Below, in pieces: positions 2-60,171 of a stretch of DNA of 64,000 nt (the stretch's first letter is position 1; each line of letters begins with the position of its first letter). The notes under the pieces were generated by a model. It did not search any database, had not been told where the DNA came from, and was given only the letters and a program-made list of their open reading frames with translations. The stretch lies in IMG/VR virus record IMGVR_UViG_3300045412_000547. One strand, given 5' to 3'. The DNA is from a virus. The translations under genes and the position numbers were made by a program.

Positions 2-667
2 AGACCTTCTGTTTTTATGCGATTATCTATGTGTAATCTTACATGTAGAGGGTTTGCATCATCAGATTCACCTCATGGTTGCGATAGCTTTATTAGCTGG
101 TCTGTAAAAAATCGTATGACTTTTGATGAAATTTTTGATTACATGTCACAAAATAGTTATAACTGTAATTTAAAAGACGGTGCTATATGGAAGATAACTG
201 GGGGTGAACCTCTTATTCAACAAAAAAATCTATTAGGATTAGTACAAGCCTTTAAAGATCGATATGGCTTTACACCTCATATCGACTTTGAAACAAATGC
301 TACTATTATGCCCGATTCAGAATGGAAAGATAAATGGGGTGCAACGTTTACAACATCTCCAAAGCTTTCTAACAACGGTGATCCTGTAGAGAAACGCTAT
401 AAGCCTGAAGTATTAAAATGGCATGCTAAAAATAATTCTGGTTTTAAATTTGTAGTTAGCGGTGAAGATGAAGTAAAAGAAATATTAGAAAAATACGTAT
501 ATGAGTGTATTGTACCGGTAAATCGAATATGGCTTATGCCTTGTTGTGGAAGCCGCGAAGAACATACACAACAAAGTTCGATTGTTGCAGATTTATGTAA
601 GAAATATAATTTTAAGTTTAGTCCGAGGTTGCAGTTAGTTATTTGGAATAAAGCACTTAAGGTTTAA
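2..667 (+). CDS. queE: 7-carboxy-7-deazaguanine synthase (radical SAM), 5'-truncated by window edge
   Basis: Frame open from position 2 (RPSVFMRLSMCNLTC...GCDS); ITGGEPL, FETNAT, TTSPKLSN, FKFVV, FSPRLQLVIW are QueE motifs. Confidence 0.9.
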   Translation, partial: RPSVFMRLSMCNLTCRGFASSDSPHGCDSFISWSVKNRMTFDEIFDYMSQNSYNCNLKDGAIWKITGGEPLIQQKNLLGLVQAFKDRYGFTPHIDFETNATIMPDSEWKDKWGATFTTSPKLSNNGDPVEKRYKPEVLKWHAKNNSGFKFVVSGEDEVKEILEKYVYECIVPVNRIWLMPCCGSREEHTQQSSIVADLCKKYNFKFSPRLQLVIWNKALKV

Positions 668-22405: not shown

Positions 22406-23320
22406 TTACTGCCTGACAGTTTTCGTAAAGTACTTAAACTTATCAACTAGGTTTCTATCTAATAAATCATAACTGCTTGCGCGAGTTGGATTAATATCAA
22501 TACCGCCACGCCGGACATATAAACACGATACAACTAACTCTTCAGGGTTAAATTTATCATAAAAACGTTTATAAATTGTCTCACAAATCTCTTCATGAAA
22601 ATGACATTCATCTCGGAATGATATAATATATTGCAGTAATGAAACTTTATTAATTTCATACCTACCTTTGTAATGTATGTAAACATCGCCCCAATCTGGC
22701 TGAGATGTTACTCTGCAGTTACTTTTTAATAAAGCAGAATGAAATCTTTGGGTCCTAGATTCTGGTATTTCAATAGCATTTAAAAGATTAGGATTCTCAC
22801 TATAAGATAATGCTTGTATCATCGTTACATCAATTTCTAATTCTAAATTAGGATATTCACTATTGGGAAATACTGGAGGATAATAAGCACCATCATCAAT
22901 AGATGTAGTAGATCTTACATATACAAGGACATCTGTTTTTAATAGTAAAGAAAGATCTATACTAATTTTATCTTGTAATTGATTCAATACACTTATAATA
23001 TTACCTTTAAATTTTTCCATGTTAAATGAGTTAAGATACAATTTGATCGATTTAGATTCTACGATGTACTCACTATTACAGGGATAAACAATTTTTGCTA
23101 TTGCTGCTATTGGCATGCCTTCTGCTGTTAAACAAGATACTTCATATGCATTCCAAATATCATATCCTTTAAAAGGTAAATTGTCGTCCTTTATGCCTAA
23201 ATGTTTTCTATTATTTTGTCTTGGTTCAGGTACTAATAAAGACGGGTCATATGTACATTTGTAACCAGTAATCTTGCCTAAATGCTTTGAAATATTACTA
23301 TTATCGAGTTGTGTGTTCAT
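22406..23320 (-). CDS. queF: NADPH-dependent preQ0 reductase (two-domain type)
   Basis: DIWNAYEVS, ESKSIKLYLNSF QueF motif, SNCRVTSQPDWG catalytic Cys, FHE, RRGGIDINP. Confidence 0.93.
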   Translation of the reverse strand: MNTQLDNSNISKHLGKITGYKCTYDPSLLVPEPRQNNRKHLGIKDDNLPFKGYDIWNAYEVSCLTAEGMPIAAIAKIVYPCNSEYIVESKSIKLYLNSFNMEKFKGNIISVLNQLQDKISIDLSLLLKTDVLVYVRSTTSIDDGAYYPPVFPNSEYPNLELEIDVTMIQALSYSENPNLLNAIEIPESRTQRFHSALLKSNCRVTSQPDWGDVYIHYKGRYEINKVSLLQYIISFRDECHFHEEICETIYKRFYDKFNPEELVVSCLYVRRGGIDINPTRASSYDLLDRNLVDKFKYFTKTVRQ

Positions 23321-23888
23321 TTATTATTAATTTAATTTGATTCATCCTTTCTTCAATTGTTCCTTTTAGTCTATATACCCTATCTTTCCATTGCGATTGC
23401 TTTATATAGTGTTCGAACTTTTCTATCATTATATTTCTAAAATTCTGATCTACACTTCTTTCACCGTCATCAATCAGTATTACATCAGTAGGGTCAGGAT
23501 ATAAAATAATATCGTATTTAGTATGATATCTAAGCCAATACCACATAGACTGCATCCATACATTATCACTAACTAGTTTTTTATCGTGAAAATAATCTGT
23601 ATATAAAAACCCATCCATAAGACACCTATCATGAACTGCATTTTTACATGATGACAATATATCAGCTCTAAATAAATTTTCTAGTTCTTTATTAATAATT
23701 AACAGTTGAGTAATGTCATTAGCACCTTCTTCGTTTATACTAACATTAAATTCTCTTTTAACTAACCGAGTAACTTCATCAATATAAAAAAACCTATCTC
23801 CAAGCCATTTAATACTCTCTTCTTCTTTCATTTTCTTTAGCAAAGTAGTTTTACCTGAACAATGCGGGCCCGTAAACGTTATATTCAC
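23301..23888 (-). CDS. P-loop nucleotide kinase (AAA_28 / dNMP-kinase-like)
   Basis: GPHCSGKTT; HDRCLMDGFLYT; DDGERS. Confidence 0.8.
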   Translation of the reverse strand: MNITFTGPHCSGKTTLLKKMKEEESIKWLGDRFFYIDEVTRLVKREFNVSINEEGANDITQLLIINKELENLFRADILSSCKNAVHDRCLMDGFLYTDYFHDKKLVSDNVWMQSMWYWLRYHTKYDIILYPDPTDVILIDDGERSVDQNFRNIMIEKFEHYIKQSQWKDRVYRLKGTIEERMNQIKLIINEHTTR

Positions 23889-24044
23889 TAACTATATCTT
23901 AACGGAATAATTTTTTAATACAAGCTTTTAATTTCTTAAAAATAGTTATTGTGGCATTGTCAGCTATTTCTTGTAATTTAAAATATCCCTTTAGTAGATG
24001 ATTATCATCATCAACCCAAACATACTTCGGGCGCTCTTTTTTCT

Positions 24045-24392
24045 TCATTTACACCATTTTCTTCTTTTTACTATTTCGGCAATAATACAATATACCGAAG
24101 TATCACTAAAAGCATCGAATACAGGCTCATTTGCTGTATCAAAAGTTTTTTTACGTAGCACAAGATTAATTAATCTTTGAATCTTATCATTCAACCGTAC
24201 AACAATAGCAGAAACTGATGCTGTTATATCTTCTTGTTTAAATAAATCGGAACCTAGGCTAATATTATGTGGTCCGTAGTCAAATTGTTTTTTACAAAAC
24301 GTCTCATAATGTTCAGATTGTATTTTTTTAAATTCACTACATGTTTCAGGATATGTAGTTTCTACATATTGAATAATTTCTTGAGAGGTCAT
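24045..24392 (-). CDS. Nucleotide-modification-associated domain 1 (DUF1599/Nmad1)-like protein
   Basis: KKQFDYG, VRLNDKIQRLINL, NEPVFDAFSDTSVYCII. Confidence 0.7.
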   Translation of the reverse strand: MTSQEIIQYVETTYPETCSEFKKIQSEHYETFCKKQFDYGPHNISLGSDLFKQEDITASVSAIVVRLNDKIQRLINLVLRKKTFDTANEPVFDAFSDTSVYCIIAEIVKRRKWCK

Positions 24393-24961
24393 TTCTCTAA
24401 TATCTTACATCCTTTTAAAAAACTTATCCATAAATCTAGCGCCACTTTTCTTAATTTAGTATAGACATCGTCTAAAGATAATCCATCAATTTGCTCTCCT
24501 TGACTCATCAAAATTTCACCTTCATCTACACCCGGTGTGACACGATGTATGACACAACCAGCCAATTTATATCCTTCACGGAAAGCCCTCTCTTGCGGAT
24601 TAAATCCTTTCATAGAAGGAAACTTATCAATAAGGCCGGGATGCAAATTATATATCTCATACTTTTCACAAATCTGCTTTGGTATAATTCTTAAGTAGCC
24701 GTGTAAAGTCACAATCGGATTACTATATACACTCAAAACATTTTCATAATTTTCAATAGTCGGTTTATTCGGTATCATATACCAGGTATGTGGCTTATTT
24801 AATTTAGTAGCACGAAACTTAGTTAGTTCGATTAATTTTTGATTTATCCCGTCCTTGGTATGTCTATTGGTAACTATACTGTCAGGATACACACCAAGTG
24901 CATTACTTAAGTCGTAAATTTCAGTTCCTGTTTGTGAAAAAAATGTAACCCAGGGTCTCAT
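24389..24961 (-). CDS. dpdN: PurN-like formyltransferase, probable preQ1 formyltransferase
   Basis: FFSQTGT, LHGYLRII, NLHPGL, GCVIHRVTPGVDEGEIL; lies between a TGT-like gene and queF. Confidence 0.7.
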   Translation of the reverse strand: MRPWVTFFSQTGTEIYDLSNALGVYPDSIVTNRHTKDGINQKLIELTKFRATKLNKPHTWYMIPNKPTIENYENVLSVYSNPIVTLHGYLRIIPKQICEKYEIYNLHPGLIDKFPSMKGFNPQERAFREGYKLAGCVIHRVTPGVDEGEILMSQGEQIDGLSLDDVYTKLRKVALDLWISFLKGCKILEK

Positions 24962-25770
24962 CTACGAATAATTTTTTTAAACATATTTACGTTATAATTT
25001 AAAATATTCAATTGCGTAGGTGTAAGCTCGTGGTCAATTAAATCAGCTAACTTTGTTGTTGGTTTTGTGGGTATACCATAATCAGCATCATATTTTAAGC
25101 CGTGTATAGCGGCGACAACCGGGTTACTTGTATCACAACTTACAATATTATAAATATTTTTATCAACATAAAATCTAAATTCTTTTGCTAACGAACAACC
25201 AAGTAAATGGTGTGGTTTATTCCAATTCCATAAACCACAATCAATTAGCTGTGATATAAACCGCTTTCTTCCTGAACAAAACTTTTCTAATTTTGAATGA
25301 CCTTCACCGGTTACTTGATAATAACTTAAATCAAAGCTAATCGCAATCATATCTGTTTCATTAGACATAAATTCATAACAATCTTTCAAGTCTTGCCAAT
25401 TTTTACCTTGTATAGCACCAATAGCTCGAGAAAAGAAAGAACTTTTTAATGCTCCGGCCTGATCTCTAAAATTTATATAACTATCAATCGTAGCATCTGA
25501 ATCTTCTAAAACATCTGGTACAATAAACATATTTGGCTGTATGTCTAGTGCTGCTTGAAAAAATTTATCCCTATTAAAAGCAGTACCGAGTTCAAATATA
25601 GAGTTATCTAATAGAACTTCTCGGTTATGTATATTCCGTGCTGTTTTAAAATAATTGTAATAATTAGATTTTGTCTCAAATAAATGAACTAATGCGTAGT
25701 CAAAATCATTATATGTCTGTGAATAATCTATAATAGATATGGGAGATTCGTGAGATACTTTTATTAGCAT
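24958..25770 (-). CDS. dpdA: TGT-like TIM-barrel guanine transglycosylase (DpdA family, possibly DpdA3-like)
   Basis: TGT-order motifs LLDNSIFELG, VPD, GAIQG, IAISF, HHLLG, SCDTSNP; first gene of the queF operon. Confidence 0.7.
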   Translation of the reverse strand: MLIKVSHESPISIIDYSQTYNDFDYALVHLFETKSNYYNYFKTARNIHNREVLLDNSIFELGTAFNRDKFFQAALDIQPNMFIVPDVLEDSDATIDSYINFRDQAGALKSSFFSRAIGAIQGKNWQDLKDCYEFMSNETDMIAISFDLSYYQVTGEGHSKLEKFCSGRKRFISQLIDCGLWNWNKPHHLLGCSLAKEFRFYVDKNIYNIVSCDTSNPVVAAIHGLKYDADYGIPTKPTTKLADLIDHELTPTQLNILNYNVNMFKKIIRR

Positions 25771-25804: not shown

Positions 25805-28776
25805 TGTCTGATTATCCACAGTATTTAGGAAATTATTTAGGAATAGTAATACAGAATAACGACCCAGCTAAACGTGGTCGAATTAAGGTTTTTGTTCCCC
25901 ATATAACGCCCACAGTTTACAAAAACTGGAATGAAGTCAATAAAGATAAGCAGTTTAAGTTTTTAGGGGCAAATATTAATAGCGATTTGACAGATATAAT
26001 GGAGGACTTAAAAAGAATTTTGCCTTGGGCTGAATGTGCAGCTCCTATAGCAGGGGAGTCGAGTAGTGGTCGTTATAATAAATTTTACAATGTCGGTTCT
26101 ATTAGCGATAGTAGTAAGTTAAAGTTAACAGTGAATTCATTGTCAAGCAGTGAAATAAATTATAAGAATGTCGTTGAAAAATATCAGTATACACAAAATT
26201 TTGATCTTATAGGAGAAAAACCCGGTGCAGTTTACGATAAAGATTATTTTCGGTTAAATGATGCTTTTATTAACCCTAAGGAAACAAACGCAAACAATAC
26301 AAACATTTTTGCTTTTAATTATTTACCTGAAACTTACAGCAATGCTGCAAAAGGAAGTTTTAGTATACCCAACGTAGGCGCGCACGTCTGGATATTTTTT
26401 AATGCAGGTGACCCTTTAAAACCAGTTTATTTTGCTGCTTCTTACGGTAATGAAGATTGGAGAACAATTTACCAGACTACCACGGGTGGCAGCGAGTCTT
26501 TTGATGGAACATCATTTAATGCTGATAAAGGTTTAGATTATCCAGGAACTTACGAAAACATACAAAAAGAAAATTATGATATTAACACAGAAGTTTATAG
26601 AAACAAATATGTACTAAATCAAAAAGGTGGTACTATACAAATAGTAAATACCGATAACCGAGAATCAATAAAGATGTCTCATTTTTCCGGTTCATTTAAA
26701 GAATTTACAAATCTAGTAAATGTTGAACTTGCTACTAATAATGATCAAAAGTTAGTTTTGAATGATCAGTTTTTAACAGTTCGGGGAGATAGAAACGAAT
26801 TTACTGGAAATAATTTAGATTTTTTAGTACAAGGAGATCATTATTTAAAAATTGGAAATTTAAAAGCTGACTATCATAAAAAATGGAGAGAGATAGTTAA
26901 AGAAATAGCAGATACAAAGCAGTTATTTGAAATCAGAAGAGCTGAAAGAATAGAAGATAGTATTTTACAGCTTACAGCTCCCGGTCAATTTAAAAGCGGG
27001 CAGCATGCAGATTGTCCAGTCTGTACTGCAATTAAAGATATGTATGGTAAAAAAGATAGATACTGGGCTTATAATAACTCTACAAAAAATGATTACAAAA
27101 ATGAAGTTTTTGGTACTATAGCTGACACTGCGGGCGATTTTATTTTTAGTCAAACTATAATTGGAGGTGCAATCGGCTTTGCAGCAAAAAAAGTAGGTGT
27201 TCAGGGAAAGCCGGAATTTGGAAGCGGTCCAGAATTATCTCAAAAATTCTTTGGTGGTGATTCAGGAGGAAACAATGGACCTGGATGGATATTTGGGGTA
27301 AGGTGCCCGGCTTGTAATCCCGACCCCGGTGAAGAACGTTTTATAATGCTTGGCGAATCAAGACCCACTCCAGGTAAGAGTCCAAGTTCTGCAGATGGTA
27401 CATTTGCAAATGAAACGCGTAAGCGGTTCGTTAAAGAATTAACTCTTAGAAAAATGAAAGAATTAGCAGATCTAGAAAAGAAAATGGGAATTGGTGGAAG
27501 TCAAATCATTGAAATAACAAAGCACAAATTCGAAAACATTGGTATGACAATGAATGATTTTGGGTCTGTTCGAGTAGATGCAAAAGGTAAGATGGAAGTT
27601 TCAGAAGTACGTGTTGGAAAAGGTGGGGTATTTTATAATAGAACACCTTCACCTCTTGTAGAATATGTTCATGTAGATGATCTACCAGGGGGTAATTACA
27701 CATTAAACGTATGCAATCGTTACAACCTTCAAGTAGGTGCCGGGGGTATAAATTTTAAATCTTATGGGCCAGTGAATATGACAGGCACGATAATGAATAT
27801 TGCTGGTACCCAGGTTAATGTAGCAAGTGAAAACGAAGTCAATATTGATGGCGGAAAGCGGTTATCGTTAGTGGGCGATATACTTAGTTTACGTCAGCGT
27901 AATGGTGGTCAAGTTGTTGTCGAAGGCAATCTAGGAGTAACAAAAAACGTTATTATAGCCGGTGGCCTTCATGTTGAAGGAGAACTATGCGCTAATCATA
28001 TAACACTACCAAAAGAAATTCAAGCCACAGAACAAGCCACGCTCCAAGGAGCTCCCACAGTATTAGAACCAATGTCTAATACAAAAGGTAAAATACTTGG
28101 TTTTGGTGTACCCCTTTCAAATTGGCCGGTACCTATAGTTAATGAATTTGGTACTGTAGCATATGAACCAGGTACTGCAGGTGTTTCGGGCCCTCCATAT
28201 ATAGGATTTACAGATGCTACTATTCCATGTGGACGGCTACAAGTTAATACACCTATTGGATATATTAAAGCTGATTTAACTGTTGGGTATATACCAGCAG
28301 GTACATGCAATGTTCAAGGAACAGATTCTCAAGGTGCAACTGTTATATGCACTAACATAATTCCTATTGAAGTTAAAGCATCTAGATTAATATCCGGTGG
28401 TCTCGATGTACCGGTTTTAGCATCATCTAATGGTAGTAGTGTGGCAGGATTTGATACTCCAGTATTTGGATCCGGTGTAGGATCAAATCTCCCGTCAGGA
28501 CCTATAGGAGGTGCTGGTTTAATTGGTGCAGGATGTGTAAAAGGATCCGATGCAGGTATAGCGGGTCTTAATGCAGAACTAATGCCTATTATGATTTACG
28601 GTACCGGTAGAGATGAAAATAGTATAACCATTAAACCTCATAGCCACCAGTTTATTGGTATAGCAACAGATCCTAAAGAGCGTAATGTTGATGTTAGAGA
28701 AGTAGCGCTAGCTATGAATAGTGGATCTCCGGTACCACCAGAACCTGTTAATAATGCGAAAAAGACTAACGCTTAA
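25804..28776 (+). CDS. gp5: Baseplate hub/central spike (gp5/VgrG-like), no recognisable lysozyme domain
   Basis: OB-fold motifs GIVIQNNDPAKRGRIKV and PNVGAHVWIFF..GD..KPVY; beta-helix-like repeats; C-terminal HSH. Confidence 0.75.
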   Translation: MSDYPQYLGNYLGIVIQNNDPAKRGRIKVFVPHITPTVYKNWNEVNKDKQFKFLGANINSDLTDIMEDLKRILPWAECAAPIAGESSSGRYNKFYNVGSISDSSKLKLTVNSLSSSEINYKNVVEKYQYTQNFDLIGEKPGAVYDKDYFRLNDAFINPKETNANNTNIFAFNYLPETYSNAAKGSFSIPNVGAHVWIFFNAGDPLKPVYFAASYGNEDWRTIYQTTTGGSESFDGTSFNADKGLDYPGTYENIQKENYDINTEVYRNKYVLNQKGGTIQIVNTDNRESIKMSHFSGSFKEFTNLVNVELATNNDQKLVLNDQFLTVRGDRNEFTGNNLDFLVQGDHYLKIGNLKADYHKKWREIVKEIADTKQLFEIRRAERIEDSILQLTAPGQFKSGQHADCPVCTAIKDMYGKKDRYWAYNNSTKNDYKNEVFGTIADTAGDFIFSQTIIGGAIGFAAKKVGVQGKPEFGSGPELSQKFFGGDSGGNNGPGWIFGVRCPACNPDPGEERFIMLGESRPTPGKSPSSADGTFANETRKRFVKELTLRKMKELADLEKKMGIGGSQIIEITKHKFENIGMTMNDFGSVRVDAKGKMEVSEVRVGKGGVFYNRTPSPLVEYVHVDDLPGGNYTLNVCNRYNLQVGAGGINFKSYGPVNMTGTIMNIAGTQVNVASENEVNIDGGKRLSLVGDILSLRQRNGGQVVVEGNLGVTKNVIIAGGLHVEGELCANHITLPKEIQATEQATLQGAPTVLEPMSNTKGKILGFGVPLSNWPVPIVNEFGTVAYEPGTAGVSGPPYIGFTDATIPCGRLQVNTPIGYIKADLTVGYIPAGTCNVQGTDSQGATVICTNIIPIEVKASRLISGGLDVPVLASSNGSSVAGFDTPVFGSGVGSNLPSGPIGGAGLIGAGCVKGSDAGIAGLNAELMPIMIYGTGRDENSITIKPHSHQFIGIATDPKERNVDVREVALAMNSGSPVPPEPVNNAKKTNA

Positions 28777-29732
28777 TTATATCCAATATCTACATAATAC
28801 AAAGCTTCTAAATCTTCGCCCCCGGCGTAACTAATTGCACTTTGAAGGTCTTGTTGTATCTCATTTAATTTCCAGAGATATGTATTATGCTGCATGGGAA
28901 TTAATTCCAATTTACCTTCTACGTTATTTTCCGTTCCTTTATTATAAAAACTAGCAGATCCGTAATATTCTTTATAAAATAATGTCGGGCTATTTGGGTC
29001 TCTAACTAGTAGTGAGGGGCTGTCGTATAAACATGCAAACATACCGCCGCACATTACCATGCTGGCCCCGGCTACAATAGCTTTTGCTATATCTCCATTA
29101 CAACGTATTCCTCCATCGGCAATAATATCTACCTTACATCTTTCCGCTATGCTTTGAATACAGGTAAACATAGGCATTGTAAAGCCAGTTTTATCTTTTG
29201 TAGTACATACATATCCTTGACCAATGCCTACTTTTATACCATCCGTACCCCATCCAACCAAATCTTCTGCAGCTTGAGAGGTAGCAATATTGCCTGCTAT
29301 AACATATGTTTCGCTTGTTTTTAAATTACAAATATGTTCTAACATGTTTTTTACAAACGAATGGTGACCGTGGGCAACATCAATAGTTACAAAATCTAAT
29401 CGTAAATTGTTTGCAAATATATTTTCTAAATCTATATAATCTTTATCATGTACCCCTACACTAATAGAAATAGTCTTCCACCCTTCTTTATTAGCCTTTT
29501 TTACAAACTCAAAATTATCTACATTAAATCTATGCATAATATAAAAGTATTCGTTTTCAGATAATAGTTTTGCTAATTTTTCATTGATAGAACATTTCAT
29601 ATTGGAAGGCACAACAGGCACTTTAAATATATGGTTACCTAACTTAGTAAATGTAGAAGCAACTTTACGAGTAGGAAGACCAGACATTTTTGGAATTAAG
29701 AAAATGTCTTTATAGTGTAAGAAACGCTTCAC
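28773..29732 (-). CDS. guaC: GMP reductase
   Basis: PSNM, YFYIMHRF, TIDVAHGH, IAGNIAT, KVGIGQGYVCTT, IADGGIR, QDLQSAISYAGG. Confidence 0.9.
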   Translation of the reverse strand: MKRFLHYKDIFLIPKMSGLPTRKVASTFTKLGNHIFKVPVVPSNMKCSINEKLAKLLSENEYFYIMHRFNVDNFEFVKKANKEGWKTISISVGVHDKDYIDLENIFANNLRLDFVTIDVAHGHHSFVKNMLEHICNLKTSETYVIAGNIATSQAAEDLVGWGTDGIKVGIGQGYVCTTKDKTGFTMPMFTCIQSIAERCKVDIIADGGIRCNGDIAKAIVAGASMVMCGGMFACLYDSPSLLVRDPNSPTLFYKEYYGSASFYNKGTENNVEGKLELIPMQHNTYLWKLNEIQQDLQSAISYAGGEDLEALYYVDIGYN

Positions 29733-37080: not shown

Positions 37081-38712
37081 TTAACTTACAGACCAGCCTT
37101 TATTTGTAGCAATGTTTTTGTTGCTTGCATCATATCCAGGATTTCCTGAAACTAAAAGTTGCTTTGCATTGTTTCCATATGAAGCACCAGAATATAAGGA
37201 TGTGTATAATACATTTAAGGCATTTGCATCCATATTTTGATTTCGTAAATCAACGTAAAAATAACTTGTCATTCCTGTAAAGTCTGCCCCCACAATTCTA
37301 TTTTGACTTACTCCATTGAAATCCATGGTTTTTATTAAAGTATCTGCCCTAAATCTAACCCAACGCCCAGACCCTAAAGGAATAATCCCACCATAATCAT
37401 GATAAACGTTCCATAAATTAAAATAATAGGTCCCCGCACCACAGCACCTTCTAGTGTACCCATTCCAGTTATTGTTCATCGTGATCCAATCAGTAGCTTG
37501 GCTTTCGGAGCCAATTCTTGGAGTTGTAACAATTCCCATTACTCGACGGGTATTTGTATTTCCTGCACTACTGGTAAAATTATAATATATATAGTACCAA
37601 TAATCTGGAGGAGGGGGAGCAGATGTACGGGTAGGGGTGTTTGATTGTGTTAAAGTAGTAGTTGTTGTTGGAGTTTGTGTGTTAGAAAGTGTAACTGTTG
37701 TACTTGGAGTAGGCGTCTGTGTCTGGGTATTCGATAAAGTAACCGTGGTGCTGGGGGTTTGTGTCTGGGTATTCGATAAAGTAACCGTGGTAGTGGGTGT
37801 TTGCGTTTGAGTTTTTGTTTGCGTAGGTGTTTGTGTTTGCGTGGGTGTTTTTGTTTGCGTGTTAGAAGGTGTGGACGTTGTTGTCAAGGTAGTGGTAGAA
37901 GTGTTAGTGGGCGTGATGGTGGGAGCAGGAGTAGCCGTATTAGTAGGCGTTTTTGTTTGTGTGGGGGTTTGAGTGTTTGAAGAAGTGGCCGTGGGAACGG
38001 GAGTACGGGTAGGTGTAGGTGTTTGCGTGGTAGTAGAATTAGGAGTAACGCCTGCCGTGGAGGTATGGGTAGGTGTGAAAGAGGGAGTAGCTGTGGCTGT
38101 AGCATCGGGAGTTCGGGTCGGGGTACTCTGGGGTGTACCTGTGGGAGTAAGAGTAGATTGCGGCGTTGGAGTCAAGGTAACTGTGGGAGTACACGTCGGA
38201 GTCGATGCCGGTGTTGAAGTGGGGGTAGGACTAGGTTCAGGGTTTTCCAATAAGAAGTCTCCGAACGCTACCACCAGATAGGAACTTCCTGGCTCGAATG
38301 TTGTAAACGGAGAAGTAAAACCGAATTGATAGGATGCAAAACCTGTGCCTGACTTGTTAACAATTAATACACTTTCTAAATAATCCCTGTAAAGAGAAAA
38401 ATCTACAGGAATACTATACGGGTAGGTAAAAATATTATATCGGCGTTTAAATTGTATGAAAGGGGGTTTACCTAAATCGGGAAGAGACATTCCAAAATTA
38501 GGACCAGCCTTCTTCACAACAAGATAACCGGTGGCCGGTTGAAATTGTGTGATAGGAGAACTAAAACCGGGTTGGTAAACTTGAAACCCCGACTTACTGT
38601 TATTGATACCAGCTAAAAAGTCTACATAAACATCGTAGTCAACAAAAGGATAGGAAAACGGACTGTTAAATTGCAATAGGGTATATTTTTGTGTAAAATT
38701 TAATTGTCTCAC
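37081..38712 (-). CDS. Late protein with about 210-aa Thr/Pro mucin-like linker between two globular regions
   Basis: PTPTSTP/TQTPT repeats; duplicated N-terminal module ([10 protein letters not shown] / [10 protein letters not shown]); TAAATA 5 nt upstream. Confidence 0.75.
37680..37860. repeat. Coding tandem repeats ([12 protein letters not shown] and TQTKTPTQT units)
   Basis: TGTGTCTGGGTATTCGATAAAGTAACCGTGGT at about 37718 and 37760, degenerate third copy near 37680. Confidence 0.8.
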
Positions 38713-54735: not shown

Positions 54736-55365
54736 TCAACTATTACTATTAGCGTAATCTTGGAGTAGTTGGCGAGTCACCACCGACAGCTTGCCTCCTT
54801 TCTCTTCTACCATCTTGGCTAAATCTATGTCCACGGCTACGAACCGCTTCTTGTATTTGTTAACCACCGATCCTCCATCACTGGATCGGACCACTCCTTT
54901 GTCATGGAGCTTTTCAAACGCTTTACCCTCTTTAGTCTTGAGAAAGCCCGCTACTAACTTCATACCTTGCTCATTGAGAGAGGTCTGCGCATAACCGCGA
55001 TTACGGACCTTGGTGACAGTTAACCCGAACGACTCCGCCCTCTTCTTGAAGTGCTTATTATGATACTGATTGGCATTACAGTCGGTGATGTTCTTCACGT
55101 AGTTGGCGTAATGGGCCATTTCGTGGATGACAGTCTCTAAGACGCCTTCCAAAGGCCGTTTAAGAGTGTCCGGACAGATGTTGATTTCATTCTTGTTAGA
55201 CTTTCCTTCTTTCCATTTACCTCGGAAGAACCATCCCAGATAAGCGGTCTTCCCTCGATTAGGAATGAGCGTGAAATAAGGATCGGGCAGCTTTGAATCC
55301 AACTCCTTGTTGAGGTAATTAAAGCTATCATGAAGGCAGGTAATGATATCACCGATGGTATTCAT
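54736..55365 (-). CDS. SprT-like zinc metalloprotease
   Basis: EINI...HEMAH...YHNKHFK. Confidence 0.8.
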   Translation of the reverse strand: MNTIGDIITCLHDSFNYLNKELDSKLPDPYFTLIPNRGKTAYLGWFFRGKWKEGKSNKNEINICPDTLKRPLEGVLETVIHEMAHYANYVKNITDCNANQYHNKHFKKRAESFGLTVTKVRNRGYAQTSLNEQGMKLVAGFLKTKEGKAFEKLHDKGVVRSSDGGSVVNKYKKRFVAVDIDLAKMVEEKGGKLSVVTRQLLQDYANSNS

Positions 55366-56272: not shown

Positions 56273-56566
56273 TCAATCATCATCACTATCATCCTTTTTC
56301 AAATAATCATTAATCTTTATCTTCTTGAAGTCGAACGGATTAGCACCATTAATCGCTTTACGAACTCTCTCTAAACCCGTCTCATTCAATATAATAACGG
56401 TACTATAATCTTCCTCTCCATCATTATACAACTTCAATCCATTAACTTCACAATTATAACTATTATAACTACCAATTACTTCTTGTAACTCCTTCTCACT
56501 ATCAATCGTAGTAAAAAAGGCATCACCCCCACATTCCGTATCGATATTCAATACCGCATATTTCAT
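56273..56566 (-). CDS. Acidic early protein with C-poor coding strand
   Basis: AAGGAG SD; about 19 C in 294 nt of coding strand. Confidence 0.6.
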   Translation of the reverse strand: MKYAVLNIDTECGGDAFFTTIDSEKELQEVIGSYNSYNCEVNGLKLYNDGEEDYSTVIILNETGLERVRKAINGANPFDFKKIKINDYLKKDDSDDD

Positions 56567-57034: not shown

Positions 57035-57256
57035 TTAACCTCCTTGGTAGGTAATCTTACTCAATTCGTTTATGGCTTTATCAAACTCTCCCATCACCTC
57101 ACTCTTGGGAAAAAAGGGTTTGTAGTTAGGTTTGTGCAAGGGAATGTCATCCATATTTAACTCTACCATCCGCTTTAACTTGGACAGAACACCAATGGTA
57201 TAGCCAATGGAATATGATGTGGTCTCTTCACTATTAAATGCTTTTGTATTTATCAT
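57035..57256 (-). CDS. Hypothetical early protein
   Basis: Promoter TTGACC-N16-TATAAT-N7-ATG. Confidence 0.6.
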   Translation of the reverse strand: MINTKAFNSEETTSYSIGYTIGVLSKLKRMVELNMDDIPLHKPNYKPFFPKSEVMGEFDKAINELSKITYQGG

Positions 57257-58176: not shown

Positions 58177-58407
58177 TCAACTAAAATTACAATCAAAGTT
58201 CTTTCCAGTATCAGAAAGATTCTCTCCATAATTGAGAAGTGATTCTGCAATACATTCTAAATCACCATTATCTTCTGCATTCTTACTATTATAATATCTC
58301 TTTGCCCATTTCATATCTGACTTCTTGATAGTTTCCTCAAACTCCTCAATAGCATCAAATACATTTTGCATTAGTTTTTCTAACTGTTCTGCTCTTTGAA
58401 TTGTCAT
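58177..58407 (-). CDS. Hypothetical early protein
   Basis: AAGGAG SD; helical acidic ORF. Confidence 0.6.
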   Translation of the reverse strand: MTIQRAEQLEKLMQNVFDAIEEFEETIKKSDMKWAKRYYNSKNAEDNGDLECIAESLLNYGENLSDTGKNFDCNFS

Positions 58408-58445: not shown

Positions 58446-58712
58446 CTATATTTTTATAAAGCTAATATCTGAGTCTAAGGGAAAGGGATTATCTATATAC
58501 CACACCTTCTTGTCACTTGACCTTACATTTGTCTTGTTCCAATGAAAGGTGCTTTTTAATACATCCACATCCTCCTTATCATTCCTATTAGGTAACATAT
58601 CCAATGACCTATTTAAGGTTTGATTAAAGTGGGAGTGTAGATAGGTATGGTCTACTTCCTTTAAACCCTTACCCTTCCAGTCCACCATAATATATTTCCC
58701 TTTTTCTATCAT
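58446..58712 (-). CDS. Hypothetical early protein
   Basis: Promoter TTGGCC-N17-TATAAT-N7-ATG. Confidence 0.6.
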   Translation of the reverse strand: MIEKGKYIMVDWKGKGLKEVDHTYLHSHFNQTLNRSLDMLPNRNDKEDVDVLKSTFHWNKTNVRSSDKKVWYIDNPFPLDSDISFIKI

Positions 58713-58739
58713 ACTTTCTATTATATTGGCAAAATTGAT

Positions 58740-58967
58740 TTAGGCCAAATTATTTTCCTTATTATATTTTTTCCAATCAACAAACTTTGTTAAATCAATA
58801 CACCCTTCCATATCTATTCCCCACCTATCTATAGTTTCTATTAAATGTACACTACCTTCTATTCCTTCTATACTACCCTTATTAAGTTCTACAAAATCGT
58901 ACATTTTGTAAAAGGCCTTTTCGAATTGTTTATATAGTTGTTTGTATTGTTGTTGTTTATTTAACAT
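58740..58967 (-). CDS. Hypothetical early protein
   Basis: Promoter TTGCTA-N16-TACAAT-N6-ATG. Confidence 0.6.
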   Translation of the reverse strand: MLNKQQQYKQLYKQFEKAFYKMYDFVELNKGSIEGIEGSVHLIETIDRWGIDMEGCIDLTKFVDWKKYNKENNLA

Positions 58968-59216
58968 ACCTATATTGTACGGGAATTTTGGGTTATAGCA
59001 ACTTTTATTTTGTCAAAGTTTTTTATTGATAAAATTGTAGTTTCCTTTAAACTAAATATACCACCTTAAGATTAGGGCAGGAGGGAGGAGAACTGGACCT
59101 TAACTTTACGCGTAAAGTTTAAGTTAATTTATTGTAAAGGGACTTAGGATTTAGTCAATATTAAAAGCATAATAATTTTTTATTGACCCAAACTAAATTT
59201 CCCGTATAATAAAAGT
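58968..59216. promoter_or_regulatory. Four sigma70-like promoters plus a central 18-bp palindrome
   Basis: P1(-) 58974-59001, P2(+) 59026-59053, P3(-) 59131-59158, P4(+) 59183-59210, all with 16-bp spacers; AACTTTACGCGTAAAGTT at 59102-59119. Confidence 0.7.
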
Positions 59217-59567
59217 ATGAAAATTAATAAAAATTGTGTTTGTAAGGAGACTAAAAAGTTAAATAGAAAAATTAGGGAGCTTTTTGTTAGGGAGATAGAT
59301 AAAGTAAAGTTAAAGAATTATAGGGGGGTGTGTAAGGGAGAGGATGTGGTAAAATATAATTGTGATAGGTATAAAAATAAATTAAAGAAGGGGTATAGTG
59401 TGGTGTGGAAAAGTATGGTATTGGCTGATAATAGGGAGAAGGAATATAAAAATAAGTTAATGGTGGTGTGGAAGAATATAATTAAAAAAATTGGTAAGGG
59501 GTGGGAGTATAGAGAATTTGATGGAAGGGTGGGAATGTATAAATTATTTGTTACAAAAACTCTGTAG
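59217..59567 (+). CDS. Basic early protein encoded by an almost cytosine-free coding strand
   Basis: TTGACC-N16-TATAAT-N6-ATG; 116 open codons; 6 C in 351 nt. Confidence 0.7.
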   Translation: MKINKNCVCKETKKLNRKIRELFVREIDKVKLKNYRGVCKGEDVVKYNCDRYKNKLKKGYSVVWKSMVLADNREKEYKNKLMVVWKNIIKKIGKGWEYREFDGRVGMYKLFVTKTL

Positions 59568-59733
59568 GGTCTCTGTCTTCAAAGACTTCTTCTAAGTCTT
59601 CTAAAGATGTATTTAACCAGTCTACTTCTGCTAAAGCTGCTTTTATCCTATCATTTTGTTCCTGTTCGCCCTCAGTAATATTCACGTTTTCCTTTATGTC
59701 CGCTTCTTTATTTTCAGAATTTCTGTTTATCAT
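59551..59733 (-). CDS. Small acidic hypothetical protein
   Basis: 60-aa ORF convergent on 59217-59567. Confidence 0.5.
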   Translation of the reverse strand: MINRNSENKEADIKENVNITEGEQEQNDRIKAALAEVDWLNTSLEDLEEVFEDRDPTEFL

Positions 59734-59740
59734 ACCTATA

Positions 59741-59947
59741 TTAATTTATAAGTTCTAATGCTAGATCCAAAATTTCTTCATCCGATTTAAAAGCGGCCTC
59801 TTCTTGAAAGCGCCGAATTTTGTAATCACTCCAGCCTTGTTTTCTGGCCGCTTTAGACATGGCCGTTATAATAGATACTGTATTCAGCCTTTCTAAAGAT
59901 AGAAGGTTTAGGTCAAGCTTATCTACATCTGGTATGTCCATGATCAT
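59741..59947 (-). CDS. Hypothetical protein
   Basis: SKAARKQGWS..I..F.EEA pattern. Confidence 0.55.
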   Translation of the reverse strand: MIMDIPDVDKLDLNLLSLERLNTVSIITAMSKAARKQGWSDYKIRRFQEEAAFKSDEEILDLALELIN

Positions 59948-60171
59948 ATAATATGATATATGATTTAAGCGGGGTTACAAGCTCTTTTCTTTGCCGATAT
60001 AGGCTACTCTGAGTATATATAGTTTATCCCTTTCTCTGTCGACTAGCTTATAAGCCTTCCTACCGTAAAGAGGCCGACATCTCTTGGCCGGGCTGCTGCC
60101 CCCGGAGGGATTAAACCTCGGGGGGGCTGATATTCTGCAACAGGGATAATCGTTGTCTAAACTTTTTTGAG

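Follow-up and report, generated by a model that had tools for sequence, protein, structure and literature searches.

Messages that lack one letter or word are familiar as ACA-less mRNAs, which resist MazF, and as the G-less or C-less cassettes used for in vitro transcription. The omission of an NTP has been described (PMC8969151). Natural selection on transcript composition has been described for Rho, whose targets are long stretches with more C than G together with T richness, and a purine bias prevents premature termination (Dierksheide et al. 2026, PMC13323073). Among phages, the PeSL cassettes of the T4-type phages RB49 and phi1 (Arbiol et al. 2010, PMC2839356) are small ORFans of hyperplastic early regions, each transcribed from its own strong sigma-70-like promoter, and recombination between the promoter repeats shuffles, inverts, fuses and deletes them. 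In the DNA of Flavobacterium phage immuto_2-6A, every G is replaced by fdPreQ1 (formyl-preQ1), DpdA3 enzymes giving complete replacement, and fdPreQ1 DNA resists restriction enzymes with G-containing sites (PMC10516641).

Here we describe a predicted early gene that is nearly free of cytosine, in a phage whose guanine-replacement genes correspond to those of immuto_2-6A. By examining its composition, its homologues and the distribution of such genes among phages, we hypothesize, with a probability of about 40%, that the ban on C in fdPreQ1 phages serves to keep the template strand free of modified G. The original prediction for this locus knew of no described case; our literature search likewise gave no publication on natural cytosine-free genes.

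The DNA analysed (64,000 nucleotides of IMG/VR virus record IMGVR_UViG_3300045412_000547, hereafter the window) is part of a large T4-like phage encoding a gp20 portal, a gp23 capsid protein, a ribonucleotide reductase and many glycosyltransferases; its closest cultured capsid relative has 33% identity. Its guanine-replacement genes are as follows:

22406..25770, minus strand: guanine-replacement operon, syntenic with the fdPreQ1 operon of Flavobacterium phage immuto_2-6A
24958-25770, minus strand: DpdA3-like transglycosylase, 270 aa, 42% identity to immuto DpdA (E 4e-67)
24389-24961, minus strand: DpdN-like formyltransferase, 48% identity to immuto DpdN
23301-23888, minus strand: P-loop kinase, operon member following a small ORF
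22406-23320, minus strand: QueF, operon member

The order DpdA-DpdN-kinase-QueF is the same in the window and in immuto_2-6A, at 42-48% identity, and DpdA3, DpdN and QueF are encoded together in the window, as in fdPreQ1 phages. The premise of the original prediction, that this phage is equipped to modify guanine, therefore stands, and judging by gene content the modification is likely to be fdPreQ1. At one end of the window (17-667) lies a partial radical-SAM protein, QueE-like by its Fer4_12 match; G001, a complete 229.7-kb IMG/VR phage whose operon is the same at 65-80% identity to that of the window, has QueC, a QueE-like gene and QueF. Close to the deazaguanine operon, at 28773-29732 on the minus strand, is an IMPDH/GMP-reductase-like gene whose G001 homologue is inside the operon, between DpdN and the kinase; this gene may bear on the supply of the modified base.

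The gene with which we are concerned lies in the early region:

59217..59567, plus strand: C-poor predicted early gene, 116 aa, supported by a shuffle test, family alignments and pN/pS

Its 351 nt consist of A144, G101, T100 and C6 (29% G, 70% purines), with the six C at 59251, 59280, 59425, 59554, 59560 and 59562. The intervening C-free runs at 59281-59424 (144 nt) and 59426-59553 (128 nt) are the longest of the 64-kb window, the next longest being 72 nt, and the lowest-C 350-nt stretch of the window falls in the region of this ORF, with 3 C (window mean 57, sd 14.5). Coding-strand C content averages 14.5% (sd 3.9) over 96 non-overlapping window ORFs; at 1.7% (z = -3.3) this ORF is alone in the 0-2% bin, and the 2-4% bin is empty, so that it is unique below 4%. 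Arg is encoded by AGR in 8/8 cases and Ser by AGT in 2/2, and the protein contains no Pro, His or Gln, one Ala and three Thr. Given the codon usage of the window itself, the chance probability is P ~1e-10 for the synonymous choices alone and P ~1e-11 for the missing P/H/Q/A/T residues. A recount thus reproduced all the C and G counts, C positions and C-free runs that had been reported for the gene, and its codon and amino-acid peculiarities were verified. We rejected an assembly, bisulfite or deamination artefact, because T is not raised (28.5% vs 31%) and G is raised instead, and because the same pattern recurs in independent assemblies. Pure mutational bias was also rejected, as amino-acid usage is reshaped too and the synonymous sites are saturated without C.

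Several neighbours (58740-58967, 58177-58407 and 56273-56566, all on the minus strand) are C-poor (6.5-9%) with a G-rich coding strand, and the small early neighbours show intermediate use of G-ending codons, a like gradient being present in G001 and immuto_2-6A. Elsewhere in the window, a long Thr/Pro/Gln-rich repeat domain (of the TPTQTKTPT... type) occupies 37600-38112 on the minus strand, inside ORF 37081-38712. The plus strand there has 154 G in 350 nt and a 66-nt C-free run, a compositional mirror image of the C-free gene that is caused by a repetitive protein on the opposite strand; a similar Thr/Pro repeat gave a false match in IMG/VR record G009.

As no stop codon includes a C, stops abound in C-free sequence, and the remaining two sense frames of the ORF contain 9 and 26 of them. 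The reading frame itself was open in 0 of 200,000 composition-preserving shuffles (P below 5e-6) and is therefore maintained. Among homologues pN/pS is below 1: close family pairs have values of 0-0.4, and distant pairs differ at ~0.5-0.7 of synonymous positions on three-letter sites, near saturation, with no C fixed. Together these observations indicate selection on both protein and nucleotide sequence. The open frame and the pN/pS values also led us to reject an origin solely as a non-coding G-rich element or R-loop. On these sequence comparisons, 59217-59567 is a genuine predicted early gene, the sole member in its genome of a pool of swappable small early cassettes. The predicted product is small, basic and Cys/Trp-rich, with a conserved core NCxRYxNKLxNGYxVVWKS...VW...GWEY. 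It has no Pfam or PHROG match; its AlphaFold model (pLDDT 72) gave no match to PDB or BFVD by Foldseek, and the ESM Atlas gave no lead.

The surroundings of the gene are those of a mobile unit:

59183..59210, plus strand: sigma-70-type early promoter TTGACC-16 nt-TATAAT with spacer motif AATTTCCCG, 11/12 consensus matches
59131..59553, plus strand: conserved mobile cassette consisting of an upstream element, the promoter and the ORF minus its original stop, delimited by colinearity with metagenome contig L002
59554..59567, plus strand: new 3' tail, codons T-K-T-L and a stop, which is flanking DNA read after rearrangement
59062..59097, minus strand: cassette-boundary element, a poly-C/CT tract and then AAGGTGGT (minus strand), from sequence reading
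58974..59001, minus strand: promoter of the same class, TTGCTA-16 nt-TACAAT with spacer AAATTCCCG, for a divergent early gene
58740-58967, 58177-58407, 57035-57256, 56273-56566 and 54736-55365, minus strand: early genes with co-oriented homologues elsewhere

The near-consensus promoter that had been proposed is present; its -10 hexamer ends 6 nt before the ATG, and the mRNA is probably leaderless or nearly so. The cassette is 423 bp long and present in a single copy. Between the window and L002 the proteins are 96% identical, and homology breaks at both cassette ends (59131 and 59553). The coding part of the cassette contains three C, the same three as in L002, with no gain since the two split; the 5-codon tail, which overlaps the end of a convergent ORF (59551-59733, minus strand), holds the other three of the six. 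In contigs L001, L002 and L060 the boundary element lies upstream of cassettes and in their orientation; in the window it is inverted with respect to the C-free gene and serves the divergent gene at 58740-58967 (7.9% C). In G001 and in the metagenome loci, the minus-strand early genes listed above have homologues that point the same way as the C-free gene, and together with the inverted boundary element this means that the window cassette was flipped. Its inversion relative to its neighbours accounts for the absence of any other plus-strand gene from 53.8 to 61 kb, a reported feature that holds for ORFs of at least 100 aa. No terminator-like site was found in 58600-60000. A near-perfect 14+14 nt palindrome (ACCTTAACTTTACG / CGTAAAGTTTAAGT) lies at 59097-59124, by the left breakpoint and between the divergent promoters: a possible junction scar, operator or bidirectional stop.

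The gene has no DNA match and no protein match in GenBank phages, and a protein search of IMG/VR found no protein relative. A promoter-motif scan of IMG/VR gave 41 matches, of which the sole real one was the G001 locus (L035). Scanning 49 IMG/VR capsid relatives, nearly all of them fragments lacking the early region, for C-free runs gave one extra match, which was a Thr/Pro repeat read on the other strand. Metagenomes were more productive: in addition to the L002 copy, L001 contains a homologue with 50% identity and zero C, followed by two genes that also have zero C, one of them unrelated, and an exhaustive profile search with one metagenome scan yielded 45 more loci with homologues. These have 36-54% identity and 0-1 C in nearly all cases, and often stand in co-oriented tandem arrays with unrelated C-free genes, forming C-poor stretches of up to ~1.4 kb. 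The collected set comprises 71 distinct C-free ORFs with 59 C in 18,342 nt (0.32%). In one distant relative of the window protein (in L058) the C content reaches 6.4%, and Ala, Thr, Gln and His are all in use; one family has both a C-free and a C-containing member (L060 615-785 vs L035 2665-2865). The avoidance of C is thus real, acts at the nucleotide level and is conserved across deep divergence.

Three observations concern individual members of this collection. The ORF at L060 136-420 is chimeric: over the first 175 nt (58 codons) it is C-free and homologous to the window family, and the rest contains C and resembles the C-terminus of L035 ORF 3296-3532 (minus strand), so that by its sequence it is a recombination product between cassettes. 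A conserved C-free mini-ORF or leader of 15-19 codons (M-L/F-N-K-V/I-I-E/K-I-V-K-W...) begins 6 nt after the -10 box at L001 480-545, L002 446-490, L035 2834-2893 (minus strand) and L060 1085-1140; it overlaps the start of the next gene (ATGAATAA), precedes C-free and C-containing cassette genes alike, and may be a translational-coupling leader. Database homologue P0004 begins with MTGVQTCALPICFPVTIPGQ, apparently an assembly or adaptor artefact joined to what is otherwise a genuine member of the family.

Comparison of the cassettes reveals where the ban begins and ends. Their promoter consensus is TTGAC, a 16-nt spacer ending in AAATTCCCG, TATAAT, and an ATG 6 nt further on, the start often reading AGGAGT ATGATG. 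Besides occurring in the -35 hexamer, cytosine is common only between -16 and -13 relative to the ATG; in C-free cassettes it is absent from the -10 hexamer through to the next promoter, and in arrays the stop codon runs straight into the next -35 hexamer. Selection therefore holds the whole transcription unit C-free, from behind one promoter to the next, and a transcription unit without C means a transcribed DNA strand without G. The promoters themselves are not free of G: the -35 hexamer keeps it, and the template strand of the spacer has three. Selection acts per nucleotide: synonymous codons with C do not occur, and Pro, His, Gln, Ala and Thr have been sacrificed. The 39 distinct residual C lie mostly at codon position 2 (24, in Thr, Ala and Pro codons) and only six at position 3, which implies that each C is costly, yet is bought when an amino acid is needed. 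ACA is their commonest context (13/39), so ACA-specific RNases are not the reason for the ban; ACA-type mRNase sites, an alternative offered by the original prediction, were rejected as the cause.

Guanine changes as well. The C-free ORFs have 27-37% G, where dropping C-containing codons alone would give 22%, and among A/G-ending synonymous codons 55% end in G, compared with 21% in long genes and 33% in other small early genes of the window. T in the cassettes is below the expectation for C-free coding, and purines reach ~70%. In the T4-like lineage G is raised, and G+C is thereby held near the genome value.

A co-occurrence of C-free ORFs with dpd/que genes was found: all three genomes with DpdA3-DpdN-QueF (the window, G001 and immuto_2-6A) contain a C-free gene, compared with 0/9 other phages. 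Each of the three has one ORF under 2% C and none at 2-4%, and the next lowest ORFs are mostly adjoining early cassettes at ~5-9%. In immuto_2-6A the gene is gp143 (NC_055915.1 68330-68686; locus L191 4331-4687), with 5 C in 357 nt, coding for an acidic protein of 118 aa without similarity to the window family; the capsid proteins of immuto_2-6A and the window share 33% identity over about half the length. The trait has consequently arisen, or been kept, in two distant lineages. The immuto_2-6A gene is one of 16 arrayed cassettes whose Bacteroidota-type promoter repeat reads GTTGC...TATATTTAGGTATCAATAATTAAAAC; the conserved leader C of this repeat is kept in 15/16 copies and missing only at gp143, and the C-free stretch of gp143 extends 33 nt beyond the stop, up to the next promoter. 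One gp143 relative has the same five C, none of its 19 changes creating a C. By contrast, L209 184-540, which is 81% identical, has 12 C (3.4%): 8/47 changes create C, several of them in synonymous TAC, TTC, TGC and AAC codons, from which it follows that the ban can lapse. C-freeness is common to several unrelated small proteins, including the acidic gp143, which makes a special basic product that enables transcription unlikely; the bootstrap role originally ascribed to a basic product is thus not upheld.

The nine other phages contain no gene with a C-free run of at least 104 nt, a criterion by which weaker cases would be missed. They comprise two phages with DpdA3, CP220 (in which all G is replaced by dADG) and CP21; MA9V-3, with a distant DpdA; KVP40, phi-Grn1 (modification measured as low-level), pf16 and Vibrio 2.275.O, with QueF; and the T4-like cyanophages P-HM2 and S-SSM7. 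The idea that any complete G replacement gives C-free genes was accordingly rejected, as CP220 and CP21 have none, and CP220 in particular, with its complete dADG, indicates that complete replacement is insufficient.

We favour a template strand without modified G as the cause of the ban, because among the explanations considered it alone predicts the association with the operon; the boundaries of the ban, which follow the transcription unit, are a further point for it. The DpdA3-DpdN-QueF set would replace every G of the DNA with fdPreQ1, as in immuto_2-6A, and a template without modified G would be fully readable, at the very start of infection, by the host's unmodified RNA polymerase. Such a gene would also be readable while host attack or base-exchange intermediates affect modified guanines, and every template G would be a sizeable cost for the most time-critical early genes. 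The C-free cassettes may, tentatively and with rather less than even chances, be a first-wave or last-stand set of genes whose expression does not depend on the fate of modified guanines.

Several findings count against this explanation. On templates with 7-substituted deazaguanine, transcription in vitro is inhibited at initiation, with no pausing and no slower elongation (PMC4838386). The cassette promoters keep their G. The original proposal of a template without G is upheld in part: the ban follows the transcription unit and the operon co-occurs with it, but a slowing of the polymerase by the modified base does not agree with these data. Early neighbours with promoters of the same class have 8-13% C and presumably work; the ban is relaxed in the L058 and L209 relatives mentioned above (6.4% and 3.4% C); and only two independent lineages, both aquatic, lie behind the association. 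The G excess is not predicted by template-strand avoidance, under which synonymous G enrichment needs a separate argument of compensation, and this enrichment is unclear in immuto_2-6A (22% vs 17%). Moreover, mRNA, non-template and template strand share one sequence, and template G and RNA C are inseparable by sequence alone.

A rival reading is a liability of C in the nascent RNA, whether through ddhCTP termination (viperin-type), a stall under CTP scarcity in starved aquatic hosts or cutting by a C-specific RNase from host or phage, all of which early messages without C would evade. Such a liability would account for a ban that follows the transcription unit including leader and trailer, for a residual-C pattern that implies a high cost per C, and for the generally low C of early cassettes (5-9%). 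It also agrees with the choice of letter: because ATG and the three stop codons lack C, a standard ORF can dispense with this base and with no other. It does not, however, predict the association with DpdA3-DpdN-QueF; the tested T4-like cyanophages of oligotrophic hosts have no such genes, and early neighbours with the same promoter class carry normal-to-low C. We consider an RNA-level cause rather unlikely. Extreme avoidance of Rho by early, leaderless, poorly coupled transcripts with no C and much G would explain the ~70% purines of the cassettes, T below the expectation for C-free coding, and the preference for G-ending synonymous codons (55% vs 21%, with an intermediate skew in window early genes); the window ORF does show the relevant feature (more than 150 nt of sense strand with G above C and little T). 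Yet a gene at 8% C and 22% G should already be safe, and avoidance of Rho needs neither zero C nor the loss of five amino acids; six third-position C in 18 kb is far past any known weak-selection bias, the G enrichment is unclear in immuto_2-6A, and nothing ties Rho to a guanine-replacement operon. Rho is thus an improbable cause.

Avoidance of restriction sites is a known phage strategy, and a strand without C holds no recognition word made of both G and C, so that a C-free stretch is nearly free of sites by construction. Against this, the borders of the ban coincide with promoter elements and not with arbitrary DNA, the promoters themselves contain CCCG and TTGAC, fdPreQ1 DNA already resists enzymes with G-containing sites (PMC10516641), and one protected 350-bp gene cannot save a 200-kb genome; we give this DNA-level explanation very little credence. 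The window copy might, finally, be a legacy, recently imported or flipped from an array that enforces the rule and now drifting, a reading that is compatible with the others. It is a lone inverted copy that has lost its original stop and gained a new tail, its cassette contains three C against 0-1 in most homologues, it is convergent with other early genes and has no terminator, and relaxed relatives exist. Its ORF is nevertheless intact and its promoter near consensus, the L002 copy (96%) has the same three C with none gained in the cassette since the split, and the presence of exactly one such gene in G001 and in immuto_2-6A looks maintained and not accidental. On balance we doubt that legacy explains the gene, although the window copy is inverted and slightly eroded and the pressure on it here may be gone. 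A template strand without modified G remains the reading we prefer for the cassettes as a group.

These are natural three-letter genes encoding proteins made from fifteen kinds of amino acid, in which selection charges for each C of the transcript or each G of the template, and no published mechanism accounts for them. If the favoured explanation is true, this would be the first case of DNA hypermodification shaping the alphabet of genes and their proteins. As immuto_2-6A is cultured, with a culturable host and a defined DNA modification, the question is directly testable, and the answer would reveal either how host RNA polymerase or defence handles hypermodified DNA or a new C-directed threat to phage RNA. 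In practical terms, the genes are natural C-less expression cassettes, and C-free runs of ~100 nt or more are a simple metagenome signature for such phages.

Compared with the known systems, the C-free cassettes most resemble PeSL cassettes in architecture: they share the strong promoter and the modular shuffling, gene order and orientation varying between the window, G001 and the metagenome loci. Unlike PeSL units, which have a G/C-rich stem-loop terminator and a Shine-Dalgarno leader, they have no stem-loop terminator (none was found in the window), their -10 hexamer lies 6 nt from the ATG, and they obey a one-letter ban unreported for PeSL genes. With the Rho-avoiding purine bias they share an excess of purines, and of G relative to C, that is strand-specific, linked to transcription and upheld by selection at synonymous sites; that bias is mild (54% purine) and genome-wide, whereas the C ban is absolute, applies only to single cassettes and has cost five amino acids. 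ACA-less messages differ in that ACA is not avoided in the C-free cassettes (13/39 residual C), and G-less cassettes in being laboratory constructs for which our literature search found no natural counterpart; both are like the C-free cassettes in that the target letter or word is absent, so that a nucleotide- or sequence-specific hit is escaped. The 2023 account of the immuto_2-6A fdPreQ1 system (PMC10516641) describes chemistry and restriction protection and no gene-composition rule, and the modification of the window phage is predicted only; the two phages nonetheless share the same operon order, and immuto_2-6A, like the window, carries a C-free early gene, gp143.
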